Source: an uncultured archaeon (lineage in GTDB: Archaea; Asgardarchaeota; Heimdallarchaeia; Heimdallarchaeales; Heimdallarchaeaceae). From it: a stretch of 22,442 bases of DNA. Shown here in pieces: positions 2,000-18,019 of the stretch. A program made the position numbers and the translations under genes. Where the stretch lies: assembly GCA_964549075.1 (NCBI GenBank), contig CAZJUB010000039.1:1-22442 (forward strand), read 5' to 3'. The notes under the pieces are model-generated. The model saw only the letters and a program-made list of their open reading frames with translations, ran no database searches and was not told where the DNA came from. How positions within the stretch are numbered: the first letter of the stretch is position 1; the number at the start of each line of letters is the position of its first letter.

Positions 2000-2176
2000 T
2001 TACCATGGTTTTGGAATCCCTGATATGTATGTATCAAGGAAACTTTTCAATTCAATCTCTGTAAAATGAGAAATATGATCATAAATAAGAGATTGATATT
2101 GTACTATAGCTATAATCAGAAATATGATACCTATTGATATAAAGAATATTAGGAATATTCTAGCTCTTGCGTTCAT
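2000..2176 (-). CDS. Small single-pass membrane protein (58 aa), probably co-transcribed with the 4Fe-4S gene
   Basis: One hydrophobic helix (IFLIFFISIGIIFLIIAIV). SD-like GAGGT lies upstream of the ATG at 2176; the ORF track uses the GTG at 2194. The gap to the downstream gene is only 13-22 nt. Confidence 0.65.
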   Translation of the reverse strand: MNARARIFLIFFISIGIIFLIIAIVQYQSLIYDHISHFTEIELKSFLDTYISGIPKPW

Positions 2177-2305
2177 GATAACTGAAGACCTCACAAATTA
2201 ACTTATAATAAAGTTTTTTGTTTTAAAGTAAATGTTAATTTACTTAATGTAGAAGATTTTTTCTCAAACACAATGCATTTAAATCCATTTGGTTAAATTC
2301 TATTT

Positions 2306-2572
2306 ATGAGCTCAAATGATATGTGGAAAGTAACCCCACTGAAATCATGCATTCTTGCTATACTTGAAAAACGTGGAGGAGTTGTCTTAGAAAATGATCT
2401 TGAAACTCCTCTTAAAGATATGTATGGAGATTATTCTGATTCAGAATTAAATAAGGCTCTTATGACTTTAGAGAACCAAGGTTTGATACACGTTGGATGG
2501 ATATCAAAAACCAAAAGACGTATCCAAATAATGACAAAAGAGATGAGCTTTTTAGCAGTTGGTGAAGATTAG
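2306..2572 (+). CDS. Small stand-alone winged-helix protein
   Basis: Helix-helix-helix-beta-hairpin pattern: ILAILEKRGG.V.E.DL...SDSELNKALMTLENQGLIHV...RRIQI. TTTAAAT lies about 25 nt upstream of the ATG, consistent with a leaderless mRNA. Confidence 0.75.
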   Translation: MSSNDMWKVTPLKSCILAILEKRGGVVLENDLETPLKDMYGDYSDSELNKALMTLENQGLIHVGWISKTKRRIQIMTKEMSFLAVGED

Positions 2573-3822
2573 TCACTGTTATTATAGAAAATAACTAATT
2601 TTCGTCCAATAATATTATGTTCCCGACCTATTGCAACTGGTATCTTTATTGAAAAAAATGCACTTTCATTTTCAAGTTTTAGAGAACTATCCTTTGCAAT
2701 TCTCTCTATATCAGGACTAATTACCATATTATCCTCATATTGGTATTCTGGTATAATTATCACAACCTTGGAGTTAGGTTTGAGGAAAATTTTACTTGTC
2801 CGTAAAACAGCGATATATAGATTTTCTAGCTCAGACATAATATTCTCTGCTTCATCTTCATCTGGTAATTCAGCAAGAAATGGTCCCAGATAAGGTTCAG
2901 TCACAATAGCTCCTACTTTATTGGATAAAATAGCAGATAAATTGCGAGAATCTAGTTTGAATACCTTCCACTTGTCTTTCATTCTAGCTTTTGCAGGATG
3001 TTGCAGAGAAAATTGATTTAGGTTTTCTTTTGTAGCTCTAAAACATTTTGGATCATTATCAACTCCAATGACATCAACACCTATTCTCAGTCCTTGAAGT
3101 AGGATTGTACCTGTACCACAGAAAGGATCGAGAAGTATTTCATCTTTCTGGATTTGAGACAAAAAAACTAAACTTCTTGCTAACTTTATGGAGGTACCAT
3201 GAGTGAAGAATCTCACTTTTCTCCCCTCATCTTGCCTAATATCCAATAATGGATTTGTAACCCATCTTGTTATACCTAAGAAGATTTTCGATTTAATTAC
3301 AAAACCTGTAATCTCAAATCCTCTTTTATTCATATTCTCCTTATGATATTGAAAGGGTGTCTGTTCATAGGTTTCGTTTTTGAACTTCAGAAGTTTTATT
3401 GGAATATCTAAATCGTTAGAAGTGTTACGAATAATTTCTTGTATTTTTCTATGGATATTTGTAGTTAGTTCCCTTGAAGTAGTTTGTATGCTTATAGAGA
3501 TTTTAACTTGTTTCTTAGAATGTTTGTAATTCCTTTGTAATGTATGCTCTATTAAATTTTTAAAATCAGATAACCAATATTTCTCTCTTTGTAAATTCTC
3601 TTCAATTTCTAGTGATCCAGCTTTAACAATGCTCCCAGTATTTTCTAAATGTTTAAGAAATTGTCCTTTTTCATTTTCTGAAAGAGTTAAGAGCAGATTA
3701 TCTTTCCATTCTTGAAAAGAAAGCTCCTTTGGTTTTATTCTTTCAAGAAGAGATGAAATTTCGAGCTTGGATAAATCTCTATTGGATCCATATTTAACAA
3801 AAACAGAGAATTTAGGTTGCAT
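2569..3822 (-). CDS. Trm11/TrmG10-like SAM-dependent RNA methyltransferase (possible N-terminal THUMP-like region)
   Basis: KLARSLV, motif I LLDPFCGTGTILL, GVDND, and a motif IV variant IVTEPYLGP. The ATG at 3822 (MQPKF), 7 nt after the fen stop, is preferred over the ORF-track start at 3849. Confidence 0.75.
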   Translation of the reverse strand: MQPKFSVFVKYGSNRDLSKLEISSLLERIKPKELSFQEWKDNLLLTLSENEKGQFLKHLENTGSIVKAGSLEIEENLQREKYWLSDFKNLIEHTLQRNYKHSKKQVKISISIQTTSRELTTNIHRKIQEIIRNTSNDLDIPIKLLKFKNETYEQTPFQYHKENMNKRGFEITGFVIKSKIFLGITRWVTNPLLDIRQDEGRKVRFFTHGTSIKLARSLVFLSQIQKDEILLDPFCGTGTILLQGLRIGVDVIGVDNDPKCFRATKENLNQFSLQHPAKARMKDKWKVFKLDSRNLSAILSNKVGAIVTEPYLGPFLAELPDEDEAENIMSELENLYIAVLRTSKIFLKPNSKVVIIIPEYQYEDNMVISPDIERIAKDSSLKLENESAFFSIKIPVAIGREHNIIGRKLVIFYNNSD

Positions 3823-3829
3823 GTTAACA

Positions 3830-4867
3830 TCATCCAAAATACGAATCAAGACTTTTCTGTTTTAAAGCTGCTTCTTGGCCTTTCTTTGCTTTTTGAAGAG
3901 TACCATAGACTCGATCCTTGCTAAATCCTCTTTCTTCACAAAGAAATTCAACAACTCCTTCAATATCTATAGATCCAAATTTCAGATCATAATCTTCAGT
4001 GATTACAGGATTTAGAAACACTTTTCGAACCGCATTATAATCCACATCTAAGACAATTTTCTCCTCCTTTTCTAAGACTGTTTCCAAATCGCCATGTTCT
4101 TTGATTAATTTATATGCGGTTTTTGGACCAATACCTTTAACCCCATCTGGATTAAAATCAGTACCTATCAGGATTGACATGTCAACAAGCTGTTCTCGGG
4201 TGATTTCCAAGGTTCTTAGTAATTCTTTTTGATGGTACTCTTCTATCTTCACATTAATAGTCCTATTTGATCTTGGAAGTTTTCTTTTTCCAGACAAAGT
4301 TAAATTTCTAATCAAAATGGGGGAACCAAACAATAAACTATCGTAATCTTGAGAAGCAACCGCCCAAACCTTGCTCTGTTGAACTAAATAAGCAGCTTGA
4401 GATTCACCTTCTTGTGGAGCTTCTACAACTGGAATACCAAGCAATTCTAGAAGTTTTTTACTGTCTTCTACCATTGGTTTTGTTAACTTACTAGTTCTTT
4501 GAGCTACTGTTCTTACTCTTTTCATATCTCCTCTCTCTAGAGCATCTTCTAACTCCTCCCTTGCTTTTGCCTTAACTTCAGCTCTACGACGAATTTCTTC
4601 TTTCTTTAATTGAGAAGGCTCTCCATCAAAAACATAGACAAGTTTTACTCCTTTTTCTAATAATCTTGAATTTCTATATAACAAACCTGTAAGATGACTA
4701 GTAATAGTACCCTCAGAATCTGATAATAAGCTACCATCGTATCCTCTTATTGAAGCAAGAAATTGATAAATTATATTGTATGCGTCAACAGCTAATTTTT
4801 TCTGTCTTAGTTGATCAATCTCTATTTGCATTCCTTCAAATAAATCACTGATTTTTTTTACACCCAT
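3830..4867 (-). CDS. fen: Flap endonuclease 1
   Basis: MGV N-terminus, AVDAYNIIYQFL, TSHLTGL, VFDG, EGESQAA, SQDYDSLLFG, GTDFNPDGVKGIGPKTA (H3TH) and a C-terminal PIP box QKSLDSYF. SD AGGAG. Confidence 0.98.
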   Translation of the reverse strand: MGVKKISDLFEGMQIEIDQLRQKKLAVDAYNIIYQFLASIRGYDGSLLSDSEGTITSHLTGLLYRNSRLLEKGVKLVYVFDGEPSQLKKEEIRRRAEVKAKAREELEDALERGDMKRVRTVAQRTSKLTKPMVEDSKKLLELLGIPVVEAPQEGESQAAYLVQQSKVWAVASQDYDSLLFGSPILIRNLTLSGKRKLPRSNRTINVKIEEYHQKELLRTLEITREQLVDMSILIGTDFNPDGVKGIGPKTAYKLIKEHGDLETVLEKEEKIVLDVDYNAVRKVFLNPVITEDYDLKFGSIDIEGVVEFLCEERGFSKDRVYGTLQKAKKGQEAALKQKSLDSYFG

Positions 4868-4934: not shown

Positions 4935-5615
4935 TTAACCAAAATGACCTGTAAGAGGTACAAAAGCTACACCTCCCATATTCTTTTCTGAGTATTGATT
5001 TTCAGGTTTTCTTGTTATCAACATCAATTCTTGATAAAATCGTTTTCCTACAGGAATAGCTAATTTTCCCCCCACAGCTAATTGTTCTAAAAGTGGAGGA
5101 GGAACTGTCTTGCTTGCAGCTGCAACTGAGATTATGTCAAAAGGTGCTTCTTCTGGATAACCTAATCCCCCATCAGATGTAAGTATAGTAACTCGATCAT
5201 CATAACCAGTTTTTTTAATATTGTTTTTAGCGAATTCAGCTAATTCTGGAATGATTTCTATAGCATAAACATGGCCCAAGTTATCCGCACCTTCAGGAGC
5301 TACCATTTCTGCAAACATTGCTGCATTATACCCACTCCCTGCGCCTACCTCTAAAACTTTATCCCCTATCTGTGGATCTGTACAAGAAGGAGAGATATAA
5401 ATCATAACCATATGAATTGCACTAATTGTTTGACCTGCGAGAATAGGAAGAGGTGTGTCAACATATGCTCTATCAAGATAATTTTCCAAAACGAAGCTTT
5501 CTCTAGGAACTTTAAGAAAAGCATCTGCCATTCTTTCAGTTATTATAATTCGGTGAGCACCTAAACGTGTAAGTACTCCCCTTTTTTCTTCGAGAAATTT
5601 GTTTTGAGGACTCAT
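4935..5615 (-). CDS. pcm: Protein-L-isoaspartate O-methyltransferase
   Basis: KVPRESFV, AYVDTPLPI..GQTISA.HM, VLEVGAGSGYNAA, DGGLGYPEEAPFD and VAFVPL motifs. Confidence 0.95.
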   Translation of the reverse strand: MSPQNKFLEEKRGVLTRLGAHRIIITERMADAFLKVPRESFVLENYLDRAYVDTPLPILAGQTISAIHMVMIYISPSCTDPQIGDKVLEVGAGSGYNAAMFAEMVAPEGADNLGHVYAIEIIPELAEFAKNNIKKTGYDDRVTILTSDGGLGYPEEAPFDIISVAAASKTVPPPLLEQLAVGGKLAIPVGKRFYQELMLITRKPENQYSEKNMGGVAFVPLTGHFG

Positions 5616-5859
5616 ATAAACAACACATGGAAGGTTTCTGTATGATTTCTAGACACGACCATTCTTAATTAGATTTCGGTTACTTTTGAGATAAAAAAAT
5701 GAAAAACTAAAATGTTTTCTATACAATTTTATCAAAATATTATCCGGATGTTTCTTGGGGAGTATCATAAGTTTTTAAAAATGAAATATAATAAGTATAT
5801 ATCAGCGTTAGTAGATTTGTACTAAAATAAGATGGTACCAAATTAAAGGAGATTATCGA

Positions 5860-6162
5860 ATGATATCACAAAAGCAATTTGAGGAGACCTTAAAATCTTT
5901 AGAGTCTCATCCCGGAGTAAGAGGGGTAATTATCACTAGTAATGATGGACTACCTATTTCTAGCACAACCAATCTCAGTATGGAAATGAGAGAAAATGTT
6001 TCAGCTTTGGTTGCCTCATTAGTAGGAAGAGCTAAGGCAGTTGTTACTGAACTCAATGAAGGAGATTTGAATTTCTTCACTTTAGACACAAGTCAAGGAG
6101 AGATTCTTGTTGCTCCTGAAAATGATTATGTATTAATTGTCTTAAGAGAAAAGAATAAGTAA
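5860..6162 (+). CDS. Roadblock/LC7-domain protein (in the mglB position; sequence resembles dynein light chain DYNLRB)
   Basis: Roadblock pattern GVRGVIITSNDGLPISS...VSALVASL...ELNEGDLNFFTLDTSQGEILV. Strong SD AAGGAG. Lies directly upstream of an MglA-like GTPase. Confidence 0.93.
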   Translation: MISQKQFEETLKSLESHPGVRGVIITSNDGLPISSTTNLSMEMRENVSALVASLVGRAKAVVTELNEGDLNFFTLDTSQGEILVAPENDYVLIVLREKNK

Positions 6163-6204
6163 GCTTAAAGAACGAACACAATATCAAAAGTTGATGAGGA
6201 TACT

Positions 6205-6771
6205 ATGAGAAAAGACGCTTCAGGCAAAATGCACTTTAAACTGGTCTTCGTAGGACCTAGTTTAGCTGGCAAAACAACACTACTAAAAAAACTACACACT
6301 GATGTTACTGGAATCAAAAAAGGAGGATTGAATAGTATTGAAGATCCTTCCGGAAGAACAATTTATTTTGATTTTAGCCCATTTATGGCAACTTCTTCAG
6401 TCATTTTAGATATTTACACAGTAGCAGGTCAAAGAAGGCATCGCCATCAACGATCTTTAGTTTTGAAAGGAGTGGATGGTTTACTCTTTGTTGCAGATTC
6501 ATCCAGAGCAATGTTAGCAGATAATGTTGAATCTGCAGAAGAGCTGAAAAACGAGCTGGGAGATAAAATTGGGGGAGAGTTACCCATTGTAATTGCTTTG
6601 AATAAGCGAGATGCACCAGATGCAATGCCTAAAAAAGAATTAGTCGACGCATTGGATTTAGGTACCAATATACCAGTTTATGAAACCATAGCAATTGAGG
6701 GAATAGGTGTAAAAAGAGCTTTTCAATCCCTCTCTAGAGAAGTATTGTTAAAGAAATTATATGCCGTTTGA
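6205..6771 (+). CDS. mglA: MglA-family small Ras-like GTPase
   Basis: G1 GPSLAGKTT, switch I GRTIYFDF (MglA RTLFFDF), G3 variant YTVAGQ (MglA YTVPGQ), LKGVDGLLFVADS, G4 NKRD, G5 ETIA. SD GAGG. Confidence 0.88.
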   Translation: MRKDASGKMHFKLVFVGPSLAGKTTLLKKLHTDVTGIKKGGLNSIEDPSGRTIYFDFSPFMATSSVILDIYTVAGQRRHRHQRSLVLKGVDGLLFVADSSRAMLADNVESAEELKNELGDKIGGELPIVIALNKRDAPDAMPKKELVDALDLGTNIPVYETIAIEGIGVKRAFQSLSREVLLKKLYAV

Positions 6772-6791: not shown

Positions 6792-7523
6792 TTAGATTTT
6801 TCCAGGCATTATAAGGATATGATCAATATTTGATGTATCATCTTGATCAATGATAAATCTTGCAACTTTAGCAACATCTTCAACGGCTAACATTCTGGTT
6901 CTATCTACATCTTTTCCATCAAACCACGGAGTATCAACCGATCCAGGATTGATTGTTGCTGCTTTAATATCAGTACCTTTTAACTCATCCCTAAGACTCC
7001 AAACCATCGCTTGAACTGCATGTTTTGTTGCTGCATATAAAGAAGCTCTAGCTCCTGTTTTCAATCCTAGATTAGATGAAGTCACAATTATTTGACCTTT
7101 ATTCTGCTTTTTCAATAGGGGGAGAGTCTTATTCAACCAAAGAAATACTCCACGAACGTTGGTATTGAACTGTTCATCATACTGCTCAATAGTTAAATCT
7201 TCTAAATTACCGAAATAACCTACACCAGCATTTGCAAAAATGACATCCAATCCACCTAATTCTTTTTTAATTTCTTTGATCATACTATCTACAGCTTGTT
7301 CATCACTAACCTCTCCAACACCATAGAAGGCTTTACATCCCTTAGATTTCAAATTATTACAAAGATCCTTCAATCTAGTTTCATTTCGTCCTGTTAGATA
7401 GAAACTATGTTTATCCTTTGCCATTTCCAAAGCTACAGCTTTACCAATTCCACTTGATCCTCCAGTAATAACAATTCTTAGAGGAGCTTTGCTATTTTCA
7501 ATATTCATACATTGAAGATTCAT
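6792..7523 (-). CDS. Classical short-chain dehydrogenase/reductase
   Basis: TGGSSGIG, NAGVG, catalytic Ser followed by YAATK, and INPGSVDT. Confidence 0.95.
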   Translation of the reverse strand: MNLQCMNIENSKAPLRIVITGGSSGIGKAVALEMAKDKHSFYLTGRNETRLKDLCNNLKSKGCKAFYGVGEVSDEQAVDSMIKEIKKELGGLDVIFANAGVGYFGNLEDLTIEQYDEQFNTNVRGVFLWLNKTLPLLKKQNKGQIIVTSSNLGLKTGARASLYAATKHAVQAMVWSLRDELKGTDIKAATINPGSVDTPWFDGKDVDRTRMLAVEDVAKVARFIIDQDDTSNIDHILIMPGKI

Positions 7524-12567: not shown

Positions 12568-13782
12568 ATGTCTCAAGATTTACCTTTAGAAGAAGCTTAT
12601 GATTGGTTTAATAGTCGTGTTTCATCGAGTATGTCTAGCTATCGAAATAGCGCAGCAAAACAACTTCGATCCATAAAAGATAAAGTAGAAGAAGTTAAAA
12701 GTGCAGCACACAGATTTGATTACTCTGATATTAAAGATCCTGATGTTTACCAAAACTATGCAACCACAATATTTACTAACATCAACGAAATTTTTGAGGA
12801 TCTTGAAACTCCAGAACAAATTACTTACAAAAATCTTGAAGATTTTCTTTCTAATATACAAAGCAAAATTAATTCTTGTATGAATATGCTTTCAAAATAT
12901 CTTTCTTGGTTAAAAAGAGACAGGTCATATAAAGATAAAGTCAAGAGTCTAGATAGATCCCTAACGAGATTAAAAGAAGATGTACATATTTTTGAAACTA
13001 AAACCTTAGTCTCTTATTCAGAAATAGTGAAATTTGAGAGAGTGTTAGAGGATATAGAAAGATTAAAACAACTTGTGGAGCGACAAAATGAACTAGAAGA
13101 AGAAATCGAATCTTATGCTGATGATGTCGAAAAAATAACTAATGAAATAAATGAAAATCAAAGTGCATTAGATGAATTTGAGAATCATCCGGGATTTATA
13201 CAATTAGAAAAAAATAGAAAAGAACTAGAACGAATTGAAATAACTATTTCAAATAGATTATCAGAAATAAAAAAGCTCTCGAGCAAAGTATTGAAAGCTG
13301 TTGATAATAAAAAAGTTGATTTAAATGATTATGATAAAGAGGTTCTTAAAAGCCTAACAAAGGATCCATTAACAGCTTTTGTTAAAGAACCAGAAGGGTA
13401 TAGGGGGATAAAATCATCCTTAAACGTACTAAAAAAAGTCAGCACAGAACCTTCTATTCAGATGAAAAAGGAAAAACTTCAACGTGCATATGAAAATATT
13501 GAGGAAATTTTAAATGATGAGCTACTTGAGTTACAAAAAACTGCTCAGTTTATTGTCAAACAAAGTGAAGCAATAGACTATAAATTCCAAGAAATGCAAC
13601 TAGATGTCAAAATGAAGAAACTCAGAGAATTGATTGATAATCTGAAAATTGATCGAAACAGAATAACATTATCTATTAGAAGAGAAAAAAATGAAGTTGA
13701 AGAGGAAATACAATCCTTAAACAAATCTATTGAAGAAAATATCAATGAATTTACTAATCGCTCTATAAAACTTGTTTATTAG
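12568..13782 (+). CDS. Hypothetical all-helical coiled-coil protein (404 aa)
   Basis: E/K/L-rich heptad stretches at about aa 150-240 and 330-395. No Walker motif or TM segment. Confidence 0.8.
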   Translation: MSQDLPLEEAYDWFNSRVSSSMSSYRNSAAKQLRSIKDKVEEVKSAAHRFDYSDIKDPDVYQNYATTIFTNINEIFEDLETPEQITYKNLEDFLSNIQSKINSCMNMLSKYLSWLKRDRSYKDKVKSLDRSLTRLKEDVHIFETKTLVSYSEIVKFERVLEDIERLKQLVERQNELEEEIESYADDVEKITNEINENQSALDEFENHPGFIQLEKNRKELERIEITISNRLSEIKKLSSKVLKAVDNKKVDLNDYDKEVLKSLTKDPLTAFVKEPEGYRGIKSSLNVLKKVSTEPSIQMKKEKLQRAYENIEEILNDELLELQKTAQFIVKQSEAIDYKFQEMQLDVKMKKLRELIDNLKIDRNRITLSIRREKNEVEEEIQSLNKSIEENINEFTNRSIKLVY

Positions 13783-15210: not shown

Positions 15211-15600
15211 ATGGCATTTGGAATAACATTTGAGAATAAGACAAATGAGTTGAAAACTACATTAAGTGATTTGAAAATCAAGGTGCCTGAAATAGAGAGC
15301 GCTGCAATTGTATCAATTGAAGGATTACCAATAGCATCGGTTTTGCCTCAGGAAATAGAAGAGGCTAGATTAGCTGCAATGACTGCGGCAATGCTATCTT
15401 TGGGTGAGAGAGTAGCACAAGAGATGCAAAGAGGAGAACTAGAAAAAATCTTCATCGAAGGAGCTTATGGATACATTATTACAACCGCAGCAGGTCAGAA
15501 TGCAGTATTGACTGTATCTGCTAGAAAAGAAGCAAAACTTGGATTAGTCTTTCTTGACATGGCTAGAGCAGCTCAAGATGTAGAACGCCAATTAAGTTAA
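15211..15600 (+). CDS. Roadblock/LC7-domain protein (long form with C-terminal helix)
   Basis: PEIESAAIVSIEGLPIAS...RLAAMTAAMLSLGERVAQEMQRGELEKIFIEG..GYII...AVLTV.....KLGLVFLDM. Confidence 0.95.
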   Translation: MAFGITFENKTNELKTTLSDLKIKVPEIESAAIVSIEGLPIASVLPQEIEEARLAAMTAAMLSLGERVAQEMQRGELEKIFIEGAYGYIITTAAGQNAVLTVSARKEAKLGLVFLDMARAAQDVERQLS

Positions 15601-15722: not shown

Positions 15723-16631
15723 ATGAGCAATAAAATTGATGACCAAGAAGCTACGGAAAATTTGGTAGTAAATCTAGGGAAACTTGAGGAAGACATAAAC
15801 AAACTTAGGAACCTTCGGAATGAATACAATCAACGTACTAAAAATGTTTTAACTAAAAGAAATGAAATAAATAAGGAAATTCAAGATCTTTTGGACAAAG
15901 CGAAGGAATTTACTCAAAAACGTGATGATTTAAATCAACAAGTTAAAGATTTGAAACAAAAACGTAAAAATCTTCAGGAATCTTTAGCACAAGATAAACA
16001 AACTCTTGAAGAAATAGTTGAAAAAGAGCAAACTATAGACAAAGGAAACATTCGTAAGAAACGAAACACTATGATTGGAATAAGTAAGAGGATAGATAAA
16101 ATAGAATGGGAATTACAGACTAGTATTCTCGATTCAGACGAAGAGAAAGAGATGATTCAGTCTTTAGAAAAACTTTCAGATCAAGTAAATAAACTAGCAG
16201 AAGAAGTCCATATTACAACTAAACAAAATGAACTCTGGAGAAAAATTTCTTCTACACAAAAAGAAATCAATATTCTTCATATCCAGATTGTAGATGTTGC
16301 AAAAGAATCGCAAATTTATCATAATTTAATGAACCAGCATTTTCAGAAGGTCAATTCTTTAAGAAAAATTGCTACTGAATATCACAAGGAATTTATTAGT
16401 AATAAAAAAACTGCTGATAGTTATCATAAGGAATATCTTGCTAAAGTCACAGAAAAAAATGAATTAAGAAAACAACTTAAGAATGCTCAACAAGAACATA
16501 GAAGGAAAATAAAAGAACGTATTAAGTCCAATATTGAAGAAAATGTCAATAAAGCTTTTGAAAAATATGAAGCTGGTGAAAATCTCAGTTTAGAGGAATT
16601 CAGACTCTTAGTTGAAAATGGGATGATTTAG
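15723..16631 (+). CDS. Archaeal coiled-coil protein (COG1340-like)
   Basis: Heptad repeats RNEYN/RNEIN/RDDLN, IEWELQTSILD..EEKE, ADSYH and the C-terminal GENLSLEEFRLL signature. Confidence 0.85.
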   Translation: MSNKIDDQEATENLVVNLGKLEEDINKLRNLRNEYNQRTKNVLTKRNEINKEIQDLLDKAKEFTQKRDDLNQQVKDLKQKRKNLQESLAQDKQTLEEIVEKEQTIDKGNIRKKRNTMIGISKRIDKIEWELQTSILDSDEEKEMIQSLEKLSDQVNKLAEEVHITTKQNELWRKISSTQKEINILHIQIVDVAKESQIYHNLMNQHFQKVNSLRKIATEYHKEFISNKKTADSYHKEYLAKVTEKNELRKQLKNAQQEHRRKIKERIKSNIEENVNKAFEKYEAGENLSLEEFRLLVENGMI

Positions 16632-16650: not shown

Positions 16651-17094
16651 TTATAAATCTTCAACTAGTATCAAATAGTCCGCATACATCAAACTATTTT
16701 CTATTACACTTTTTGATGGTGCTATTAGCAGTATTTCTGTCGATTCTCTTGCAGAAGAAATCATGGGTAAGAGGACCTCATCAATAACACCTAAACATAA
16801 AATATCAGTTTGCTGAGTTAGAACAACATCCATCGCTTCAAGTGCCATATGAATCTCTTCATCTGAAGGGACTATTACTGGAGAAATTCCCTTTTTGATA
16901 TATGCACCATATTCTTCTGGTTTAAGCTGATGATCGAAAATTACCATAGATTTTCTAATACTACCAATTTCTTTTATTTGGTCGAGAATATGTATTATTT
17001 GAGTTTCAGAAAGAGTCTCAATTAGTTTACCTGTGAATATACAACTAATGTTTTTTCCTTGTTTTTTCAAGATATTCAGAACTCTTTCAGTCAT
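16651..17094 (-). CDS. NYN/PIN-fold (TIGR00288/DUF88-like) protein with a degenerate active site
   Basis: IHMALEAMD...DILCLGVID..LLPMI..ARE...LMYADYLI resembles the TIGR00288 C-terminal half. The ATG at 17094 is preferred over 17118. Confidence 0.65.
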   Translation of the reverse strand: MTERVLNILKKQGKNISCIFTGKLIETLSETQIIHILDQIKEIGSIRKSMVIFDHQLKPEEYGAYIKKGISPVIVPSDEEIHMALEAMDVVLTQQTDILCLGVIDEVLLPMISSARESTEILLIAPSKSVIENSLMYADYLILVEDL

Positions 17095-17248
17095 ATTATT
17101 TGGTAAACATTTGCACAATTATAAATAATTTCGTTTCAATATTTTTTAAGATTTGAAAATAGTAGATATAAAAAGAGATTAAAAGAGTAATAGTTTGAAT
17201 TTCATAAATATCATATTTCCAACTATTTGATAAATATAGGTGGCTTTA

Positions 17249-18019
17249 ATGCGTTTACCAACTCCTAAATTAATTTACAAGCTTTATGAAAGGAAACTTT
17301 TCTCTGAAATAAAGAATAATCCAATTCCTAAGCATATAGGAATTATTCTTGATGGAAATAGAAGAGGAAGTAAACAATTAGGAGTAGATTATGTAAAGGG
17401 ATATGAACTTGGTGCTCAAAAACTTGAGGAAGTTTTGGACTGGTGCTGGGATCTTGGAGTGAAAGTCATATCATGCTGGATTTTCTCTACTGAAAATTTC
17501 TCTCGTCCAAAGGATCAGGTTGAAAGTATAATGAAATTAGCAGTAAAATACTTTCAGAAAATAAGAAATGATAAGAGAATTTTCAAGAATGAAGTAAGAA
17601 TAAGGGTACTTGGCAGAAGGGAGATGCTTCCTAAAGAGGTTCAAAAAGAAATTGAATTGACTGAAGAAGCAACCAAGCACCATAACAAATATGATTTAAA
17701 TTTGTGTATGGCATATGGTGGAAGAGCAGAAATAGTTGATGCTTTGAAACAAATTCTAGATAAAGCTAAAGAAGGGAGTATAGATTTGAATAATGTTGAT
17801 GAAGAGTTAATAAGTAGTCATCTATACGCTGATGACACTCCAGACCCAGATTTAATTATACGTACTTCTGGTGAAGAAAGGCTATCAGGTTTTCTTCTCT
17901 GGCAATCAGCTTTTTCAGAATATTATTTTACAGATGTTCATTGGCCTTTGTTTAGAAAAATAGACCTTTGGAGAGCGATAAGATCATTCCAAAGAAGAGA
18001 AAGAAGATATGGAGTTTAA
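17249..18019 (+). CDS. uppS: cis-prenyltransferase (polyprenyl diphosphate synthase)
   Basis: PKHIGIILDGNRR, FSTENFSRP, YGGRAEI, PDLIIRTSGEERLSGFLLWQ and C-terminal RRYG. AGGTG SD favours the ATG at 17249 over the GTG at 17240. Confidence 0.97.
   Translation: MRLPTPKLIYKLYERKLFSEIKNNPIPKHIGIILDGNRRGSKQLGVDYVKGYELGAQKLEEVLDWCWDLGVKVISCWIFSTENFSRPKDQVESIMKLAVKYFQKIRNDKRIFKNEVRIRVLGRREMLPKEVQKEIELTEEATKHHNKYDLNLCMAYGGRAEIVDALKQILDKAKEGSIDLNNVDEELISSHLYADDTPDPDLIIRTSGEERLSGFLLWQSAFSEYYFTDVHWPLFRKIDLWRAIRSFQRRERRYGV

Follow-up and report, generated by a model that had tools for sequence, protein, structure and literature searches.

Where does the roadblock chain of dynein come from? DYNLRB is a universal dynein subunit of obscure origin, and the most interesting point raised by the locus described here is whether the ancestor of this chain was a subunit of a small-GTPase switch. 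The locus lies in a stretch of 22,442 nucleotides (nt), called the window below, from an uncultured Heimdallarchaeaceae archaeon of the Asgardarchaeota (contig CAZJUB010000039.1, assembly GCA_964549075.1); relatives close to both proteins of interest carry the source labels Heimdallarchaeaceae or Ca. Heimdallarchaeum. Two genes on the plus strand are concerned: a short Roadblock gene of the RBLC7/DYNLRB type (5860..6162, 100 residues), assigned by open reading frame (ORF), Pfam, PDB search, AlphaFold2 and Foldseek, and an MglA-family small GTPase gene (6205..6771, 188 residues), assigned by ORF, PDB search and signature residues. Read from the sequence, a Shine-Dalgarno-like AGGAG (5847..5851, plus strand) stands 8 nt 5' of the Roadblock ATG, and the 42-nt spacer between the genes (6163..6204) holds GAGGA at 6196-6200, 4 nt 5' of the GTPase ATG. 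An earlier note, made from this stretch alone, had already pointed out the Shine-Dalgarno sequence, the 100-residue Roadblock and the GTPase 42 nt later; its observation is confirmed, and its interpretation, a DYNLRB-type regulator of an adjacent GTPase, is partly supported. The reading preferred here, to which a probability of roughly 55% is given, is that the short Roadblock serves as an adaptor subunit, binding a helix, in an MglA switch made up of several Roadblocks, and is encoded by the remnant of a wider gene cluster.

The protein encoded at 5860-6162 is orthologous to the Asgard short Roadblock and represents it in the Heimdallarchaeaceae; this is the RBLC7 type, crystallised as Odin-RBLC7 (PDB 7F8F). 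Residues 7-95 match Pfam Robl_LC7 (PF03259) with an E-value of 1.4e-20 and 73.3 bits, against a curated cut-off of 23, and NCBIfam returned no match for the protein. When the single sequence was searched against all of PDB with phmmer, the best chain was 7F8F, matched over the whole length (E 8.5e-26), followed by about 19 DYNLRB chains (E 4e-16 to 3e-8), the human and bovine DYNLRB2 chains standing at E 3-4e-13; no MglB chain appeared at E<=10. A profile of 37 Asgard orthologues likewise found 7F8F (1.5e-40) and DYNLRB (1e-24 to 7e-14), and showed weak likeness to LAMTOR2 (4e-3) and LAMTOR5 (0.05) and none to MglB at E<=1. Identity to DYNLRB1/2 (LC7, km23, Robl) is 33-37% over the whole protein and amounts to 34/93 (37%) for a sea-urchin DYNLRB2-like protein, in keeping with the one third estimated by eye in the earlier note; the motif matches proposed there (EETLK, G-I/L-P-I and MVAP-D/E...LIV) are seen in alignments to fly Robl (3L7H) and human 2E8J.

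The fold agrees with this assignment. An AlphaFold2 model built from a 37-row alignment (mean predicted local distance difference test score, pLDDT, 91.5) has the order α1 4-15, β1 20-27, β2 32-35, α2 41-64, β3 73-77, β4 80-86 and β5 90-97. The 100-residue chain stops after β5 and the model has no C-terminal helix, as had been suspected from the sequence; DYNLRB1/2 has the same order of elements and also lacks the helix. The top Foldseek matches of the model were 7F8F, at 56% identity, and DYNLRBs. The hallmark of MglB, a core followed by a C-terminal helix and a tail in a protein of about 160 residues, is absent, and the MglB trait that the protein does share is the position of its gene, immediately 5' of mglA with a 42-nt gap.

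The specificity of the link to DYNLRB was examined by an exhaustive phmmer search with the short Roadblock against 1.84 billion cluster representatives, which yielded 429 proteins at E<=1e-3. A FastTree phylogeny was made from 136 of the best 150 of these matches, each of which spanned 75 or more positions of the family profile. One clade with a local support of 97 took in 113 of the 136; among the remaining 23, 22 fell with the Asgard short Roadblocks and one (P0262) stood alone outside the group. Ten representatives of the large clade were looked up, of which five had names, all eukaryotic DYNLRBs (nematode, cestode, sea urchin, Pyramimonas and Micromonas), and five were nameless; ten of the other 23 gave two named clusters, both Asgard, and eight nameless ones. 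A Pfam scan of six long matches from the exhaustive search, made to look for fused forms, found a GTPase domain in none; one of the six (P0233) proved to be a spurious repetitive match in which Pfam finds no Roadblock domain.

The relationship is reciprocal. Each of the five named eukaryotic DYNLRBs matched all 40 of the Asgard short Roadblocks that had been fetched, and among the 5,280 ORFs of the archaeon's own genome the five matched the window protein (C39_5860_6162) only, at E 4e-13 to 3e-17, leaving the other Roadblock paralogues of that genome unmatched at E<=10. In a more careful IQ-TREE analysis (90 rows, 97 columns), short Roadblocks and DYNLRB were split from bacterial MglB and from the two longer Asgard Roadblock families considered below at 99/98, and the DYNLRB rows formed a single clade at 100/99. 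Together with the PDB, reciprocal and Foldseek searches, this bears out the earlier prediction that the protein would group with DYNLRB and not with MglB. Judged by their sequences, the Asgard short Roadblocks are the closest prokaryotic relatives of the eukaryotic dynein light chain DYNLRB. A branching of DYNLRB with sequences of the Heimdall group in particular was also considered; the tree does not resolve it.

The neighbouring gene, 6205-6771, encodes what is by sequence comparison an MglA-type GTPase. Pfam, which has no MglA model, ranks Arf best, and NCBIfam gives a small_GTP match only, below its cut-off. Searched against PDB, the protein finds Thermus MglA at 1.5e-31 and Myxococcus MglA at 2e-28, the next best being Arf5 at about 1e-9 (1.2e-9). 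The signatures listed in the earlier note are present, namely GRTIYFDF (50-57), TVAGQ (72-76) and NKRD (133-136), and in the alignment their counterparts in Thermus MglA are RTLFFDF, TVPGQ and NKRD. Across 25 Asgard orthologues T52, T72, A74, G75, Q76, N133, K134 and D136 are invariant, and R51, the intrinsic arginine beside T52 of switch I, is nearly so. The G3 motif is thus of the form TxxGQ in place of DxxGQ, with the catalytic glutamine Q76 retained. A quick tree grouped the GTPases of the cluster with bacterial MglA and with two paralogues from the window's genome; the branch that separates this set from 21 other small GTPases of the genome is long and has weak support (69).

Between the GKT and RT motifs (G1 to G2) the GTPase aligns without gaps with Deinococcus MglA, and it therefore has the extra G1-G2 length that is described as a bacterial-type trait of MglA (Wuichet and Sogaard-Andersen 2014). 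The same work, which predates the Asgard genomes, describes archaeal Group 4 as differing from bacterial MglA. As Asgard MglA-like GTPases have both the extra G1-G2 length and the Thr-for-Asp G3, that scheme may need revisiting. The two paralogues lie on contig C11 at 62534-63298 and 49894-50652, both on the minus strand. At 254 and 252 residues they are longer than the GTPase core, and in the tree they fall within the MglA set, apart from the 21 other small GTPases.

The pair is part of a broader pattern. Of 301 Asgard genomes sampled, 278 hold a match to the short Roadblock at E<=1e-5, as do all 90 of the high-quality ones. ORFs of 40 loci were classed with hidden Markov models (HMMs) for four families: the short Roadblock, a 'mid' Roadblock of about 155 residues, the GTPase, and a 'down' Roadblock of about 125 residues. 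An MglA-like gene lies downstream on the same strand in 26 of the 40 loci, which upholds the expectation that the gene pairing would be conserved across Asgard archaea. In 20 of these 26 linked loci the MglB-like 'mid' gene stands between the short Roadblock and MglA, and in 19 the roughly 125-residue Roadblock follows the GTPase. The common order, all on one strand, is short Roadblock, MglB-like Roadblock, MglA and 'down' Roadblock, with median gaps of 65 nt between the short and 'mid' genes, 87 nt between 'mid' and the GTPase gene, and 54 nt between the latter and 'down'. The short Roadblock is directly 5' of MglA in six loci only, all from the window's own order (median gap 69.5 nt, range 28-131). 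The description as an mglBA-type pair therefore stands for the arrangement, a Roadblock directly 5' of an MglA-type GTPase, and fails for the identity of the Roadblock, since an MglB-like Roadblock intervenes in most linked loci and is kept elsewhere in this genome. The window pair is the remnant of a wider four-gene Asgard cluster, from which the MglB-like gene departed in this order.

The MglB-like gene of this archaeon is on contig C8 (67517-68128, minus strand); it encodes 203 residues, against the usual 155 or so, and matches the 'mid' family at E 2e-36. The best solved matches of the 'mid' profile are Myxococcus MglB (1.4e-6), and in the FastTree analysis 'mid' joins bacterial MglB with support 90; bacterial MglB also resembles 'mid' in its size, about 160 residues, and in its place directly 5' of mglA. 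The 'mid' family is unusually well conserved across the phylum: its mean column identity is 70% in an alignment from 17 Asgard loci, against 48% for the short Roadblock and 63% for the GTPase. The closest solved relative of the 'down' family is the Thor Roadblock 7F8M (4e-32), and it is also near a Roadblock of MK-D1. Because a separate MglB-like gene exists in both the cluster and the genome, the DYNLRB-like protein is an additional Roadblock of the module. Three minor observations concern the 'mid' gene: a conserved acidic C-terminal tail extends beyond the Roadblock core in the 17 loci; the C8 copy lies 1.7 kb from a gene for a small GTPase that is not of the MglA type (65250-65840, plus strand); and in locus L032 the gene is present as two ORFs (106 and 99 residues, starting +244 and +615 from the short Roadblock start), perhaps through a frameshift or assembly error.

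Bacterial MglB-MglA (Myxococcus xanthus and Thermus thermophilus; 3T12, 3T1Q, 6IZW) is a close counterpart for one half of the pair. The GTPase is of the same family, with the intrinsic arginine and the Thr-for-Asp G3, and the Roadblock gene is immediately 5' of the GTPase gene, a position that MglB takes relative to mglA in 62 of the 81 bacterial loci compared. The window Roadblock, however, has 100 residues where MglB has about 160 (the bacterial ORFs are mostly 158-170 residues) and is unlike MglB in sequence, and the Asgard MglB-like protein is encoded by a gene separate from the short Roadblock. DYNLRB1/2 is the counterpart of the other half: it is the reciprocal best relative and falls in one tree clade, yet its partner is the dynein intermediate chain, whereas the genomic partners of the window Roadblock are an MglA-type GTPase and other Roadblocks.

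The nearest solved protein, Odin-RBLC7 of Odinarchaeota LCB_4, is of the same family, length class and fold, without the C-terminal helix, and comes from a different Asgard class. Tran et al. 2024 (PMC10933270) report it to be a homodimer and propose that it has a groove for a helix, drawing a parallel with two known pairs, DYNLRB with the intermediate chain and LAMTOR4/5 with LAMTOR1. Where a gene for an identical protein occurs, in locus L039, two Roadblock genes follow and no GTPase, whereas in the window MglA is directly next; the sections consulted of that paper mention no GTPase neighbour. Ragulator offers a further parallel, in that it likewise combines short Roadblocks without the C-terminal helix (LAMTOR4/5), long ones (LAMTOR2/3) and a small GTPase (Rag), the short type binding a partner helix (Tran et al. 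2024, PMC10933270). The likeness in sequence is weak, as the LAMTOR2 and LAMTOR5 values above indicate, the window GTPase is MglA-type and not Rag-type, and no LAMTOR1-like gene was identified here.

The proposed adaptor role would draw on these analogies. The short Roadblock would form a homodimer, as in the 56%-identical 7F8F, and would serve as the adaptor subunit of an MglA/MglB switch. Since the chain has no C-terminal helix, a groove would be left free for an alpha-helix of a partner, much as DYNLRB holds the dynein intermediate chain and LAMTOR4/5 hold LAMTOR1. Helix binding of this kind would couple the switch to a scaffold or an effector. GTPase-activating protein (GAP) or guanine nucleotide exchange factor (GEF) activity would more probably come from the MglB-like protein, and because that protein has a gene of its own, the short Roadblock is more likely to be an adaptor than a GAP. 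The most obvious helix donor would be a linked all-helical protein of 404 residues, described below.

Several points weigh against this proposal. The 40 loci (about 8 kb around the short Roadblock, from 39 genomes) were best-scoring rows spread over family codes and not a random sample, and related loci are not independent, L037 and L047 being near-copies. No MglA gene is present in the fetched stretch in 14 of the 40, and in all five such genomes searched, among them the one whose short Roadblock is identical to the 7F8F chain, MglA lies elsewhere with no Roadblock within 1.5 kb. The genes for UppS, NYN and DUF7121 proteins share the conserved neighbourhood, which shows that inherited order alone can keep unrelated genes together. 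That the short Roadblock physically touches MglA, the MglB-like protein or the 404-residue protein is something that we only infer; a complex prediction with two short Roadblocks and MglA, run without controls, scored 0.00 and speaks neither for nor against binding. On the phylogenetic side, DYNLRB was nested among Asgard rows in 200 of 200 bootstrap trees, the bootstrap being unsettled, while an approximately unbiased (AU) test does not reject Asgard monophyly (p 0.396). Finally, 'mid' is no more than a probable MglB orthologue: FastTree joins it to bacterial MglB, and IQ-TREE instead joins bacterial MglB with 'down' (85/72), a grouping flagged as a meeting of long branches.

Could the DYNLRB-like dimer itself be the platform on which the adjacent MglA is regulated, as GAP and/or GEF, having become the equivalent of MglB since the MglB-like gene left the operon? 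Direct adjacency in all six sampled loci of the order, at gaps of 28-131 nt, would be expected, as would the isolation of the pair as a transcription unit in the window: it is an isolated two-gene unit because both flanking genes, PCMT upstream (4935-5615) and a short-chain dehydrogenase downstream (6792-7523), each assigned by ORF and Pfam, sit on the minus strand. Dimers of Roadblock and longin proteins are, moreover, described as general GTPase platforms (Tran et al. 2024, PMC10933270). We nevertheless regard this as unlikely, for the genome retains the well-conserved MglB-like orthologue on C8, the short Roadblock and the MglB-like gene coexist in one cluster in 20 loci, the short protein lacks the C-terminal helix and tail of proteins of MglB size, and likeness to MglB was undetectable with either the single sequence (E<=10) or the profile (E<=1).

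Adjacency might, on the other hand, be inherited gene order without common function, with the short Roadblock serving some other process, such as the scaffolding of a different GTPase or of a cytoskeletal assembly. The 14 stretches without the GTPase would then need no special account, nor would the genome with the short Roadblock identical to 7F8F, which keeps three Roadblock genes together with MglA about 141 kb away, nor the presence of the clearly unrelated UppS and NYN genes in the neighbourhood. That account is less likely still, given that operon-like, same-strand spacing recurs across many family codes, that when the cluster broke up in this order it was the short Roadblock that stayed beside MglA, and that the tie of Roadblock proteins to small GTPases is well documented in the literature.

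Both families had been published for Asgard archaea, and the value of the locus is in the linkage and the experiment that it suggests, not in a new type of protein. A regulatory role of Roadblock proteins towards NTPases before dynein is an idea of Koonin and Aravind 2000, as cited elsewhere, and a Lokiarchaeum 'RLC7 dynein homolog' is credited by Dey et al. 2016 to Klinger et al. 2016. Wu et al. 2022 count the 'roadblock/LC7/dynein family' among the universal families of Asgard archaea, and Liu et al. 2020 place three Roadblock/longin and two GTPase families among the Asgard-specific core genes; the conserved operons that they name include an ESCRT one and a LAMTOR1-like/Rab-like/DENN one. 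Tran et al. 2024 (PMC10933270) crystallised Odin-RBLC7, compared it with DLRB1 and predicted MglA-like GTPases in MK-D1; models of MglA/MglB pairs from archaea also exist (Nat Commun 2026). No description of the four-gene cluster of short Roadblock, MglB-like Roadblock, MglA and Roadblock was found in a search of the full-text literature that left aside supplementary tables (Liu 2020/2021, Tran 2024).

What the linkage adds is that, in most of the Asgard lineages sampled, the archaeal protein closest to DYNLRB is linked in the genome to an MglA/MglB-type switch. This would give the subunit a concrete and testable function before dynein, as an adaptor in a small-GTPase module. A more specific version, tentative and on balance improbable, is that the roadblock chain of dynein began as the helix-binding subunit of an Asgard multi-Roadblock/MglA switch, that it still works with MglA in the Heimdall group, and that the 404-residue protein is a ligand resembling the intermediate chain; in that case dynein would have taken over a ready-made adaptor from a small-GTPase module of polarity or trafficking. 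A set of soluble proteins is on offer for experiment: the short Roadblock, MglA, the MglB-like and long Roadblocks, and the helical protein.

The helical protein (12568..13782, plus strand, 404 residues; identified by Pfam, AlphaFold2 and neighbourhood) is a candidate third component without a known family. Pfam gave no family at E<=1e-5 and only sub-threshold matches at E<=1, a protein atlas placed it with unnamed archaeal clusters only, and its AlphaFold2 model, all-helical with a pLDDT of 89.4, had no Foldseek match in PDB at E<=0.001. Of the 46 genomes of the order, 43 have a match to it at E<=1e-8. In three loci (L020, L021 and L022) the homologue is directly beside the pair, and three arrangements occur: 5' on the same strand, divergent, and 3' of the GTPase. 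Within the window's family the genes for the 404-residue protein and the short Roadblock share a contig in 14 of 27 genomes and are on different contigs in 13; when they share one they are at most 12 kb apart in 13 of the 14 cases and 27 kb apart in the other. Kinship with dynein stalks was considered and rejected, the matches being weak, generic coiled-coil ones with template modelling (TM) scores below 0.3.

Both halves of the cluster are found in the window, the second one 9 kb downstream of the pair, and they look as though they had been split by about 8.4 kb of unrelated genes. The second half begins with a long Roadblock gene (15211..15600, plus strand, 129 residues), which is orthologous to the last gene of the four-gene cluster ('down' HMM E 7.3e-54; Pfam Robl_LC7 2.8e-18). 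It is followed by a DUF7121 protein (15723..16631, plus strand; Pfam DUF7121 3.4e-19), homologues of which occur in 7 of the 40 Asgard loci, and by an NYN-like protein (16651..17118, minus strand). The latter had no match in its own Pfam scan at E<=1e-3, and is assigned by phmmer (1.9e-15) to the L032 ORF at 1069-1500, which matches Pfam NYN at 1e-12. A UppS-type cis-prenyltransferase (17240..18019, plus strand; Pfam Prenyltransf 2.4e-77) completes the series and matches the copy of the cluster at 1.4e-90 by phmmer. Among the 40 loci, UppS is found near the cluster in 16 and NYN in 6, and UppS adjoins 'down' in 15, with a median gap of 71 nt.

On the 5' side of the cluster, 8 of the 40 loci (L041, L042, L043, L050, L051, L053, L055 and L056) have a gene for a protein of about 543 residues as the immediate same-strand neighbour of the short Roadblock, with a median gap of 190 nt and at about 2140-3830 in the orientation of the short Roadblock. 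The L041 copy, the sole one scanned with Pfam, has weak matches to the Sec23/Sec24 trunk, beta-sandwich and zinc-finger domains and to VWA.

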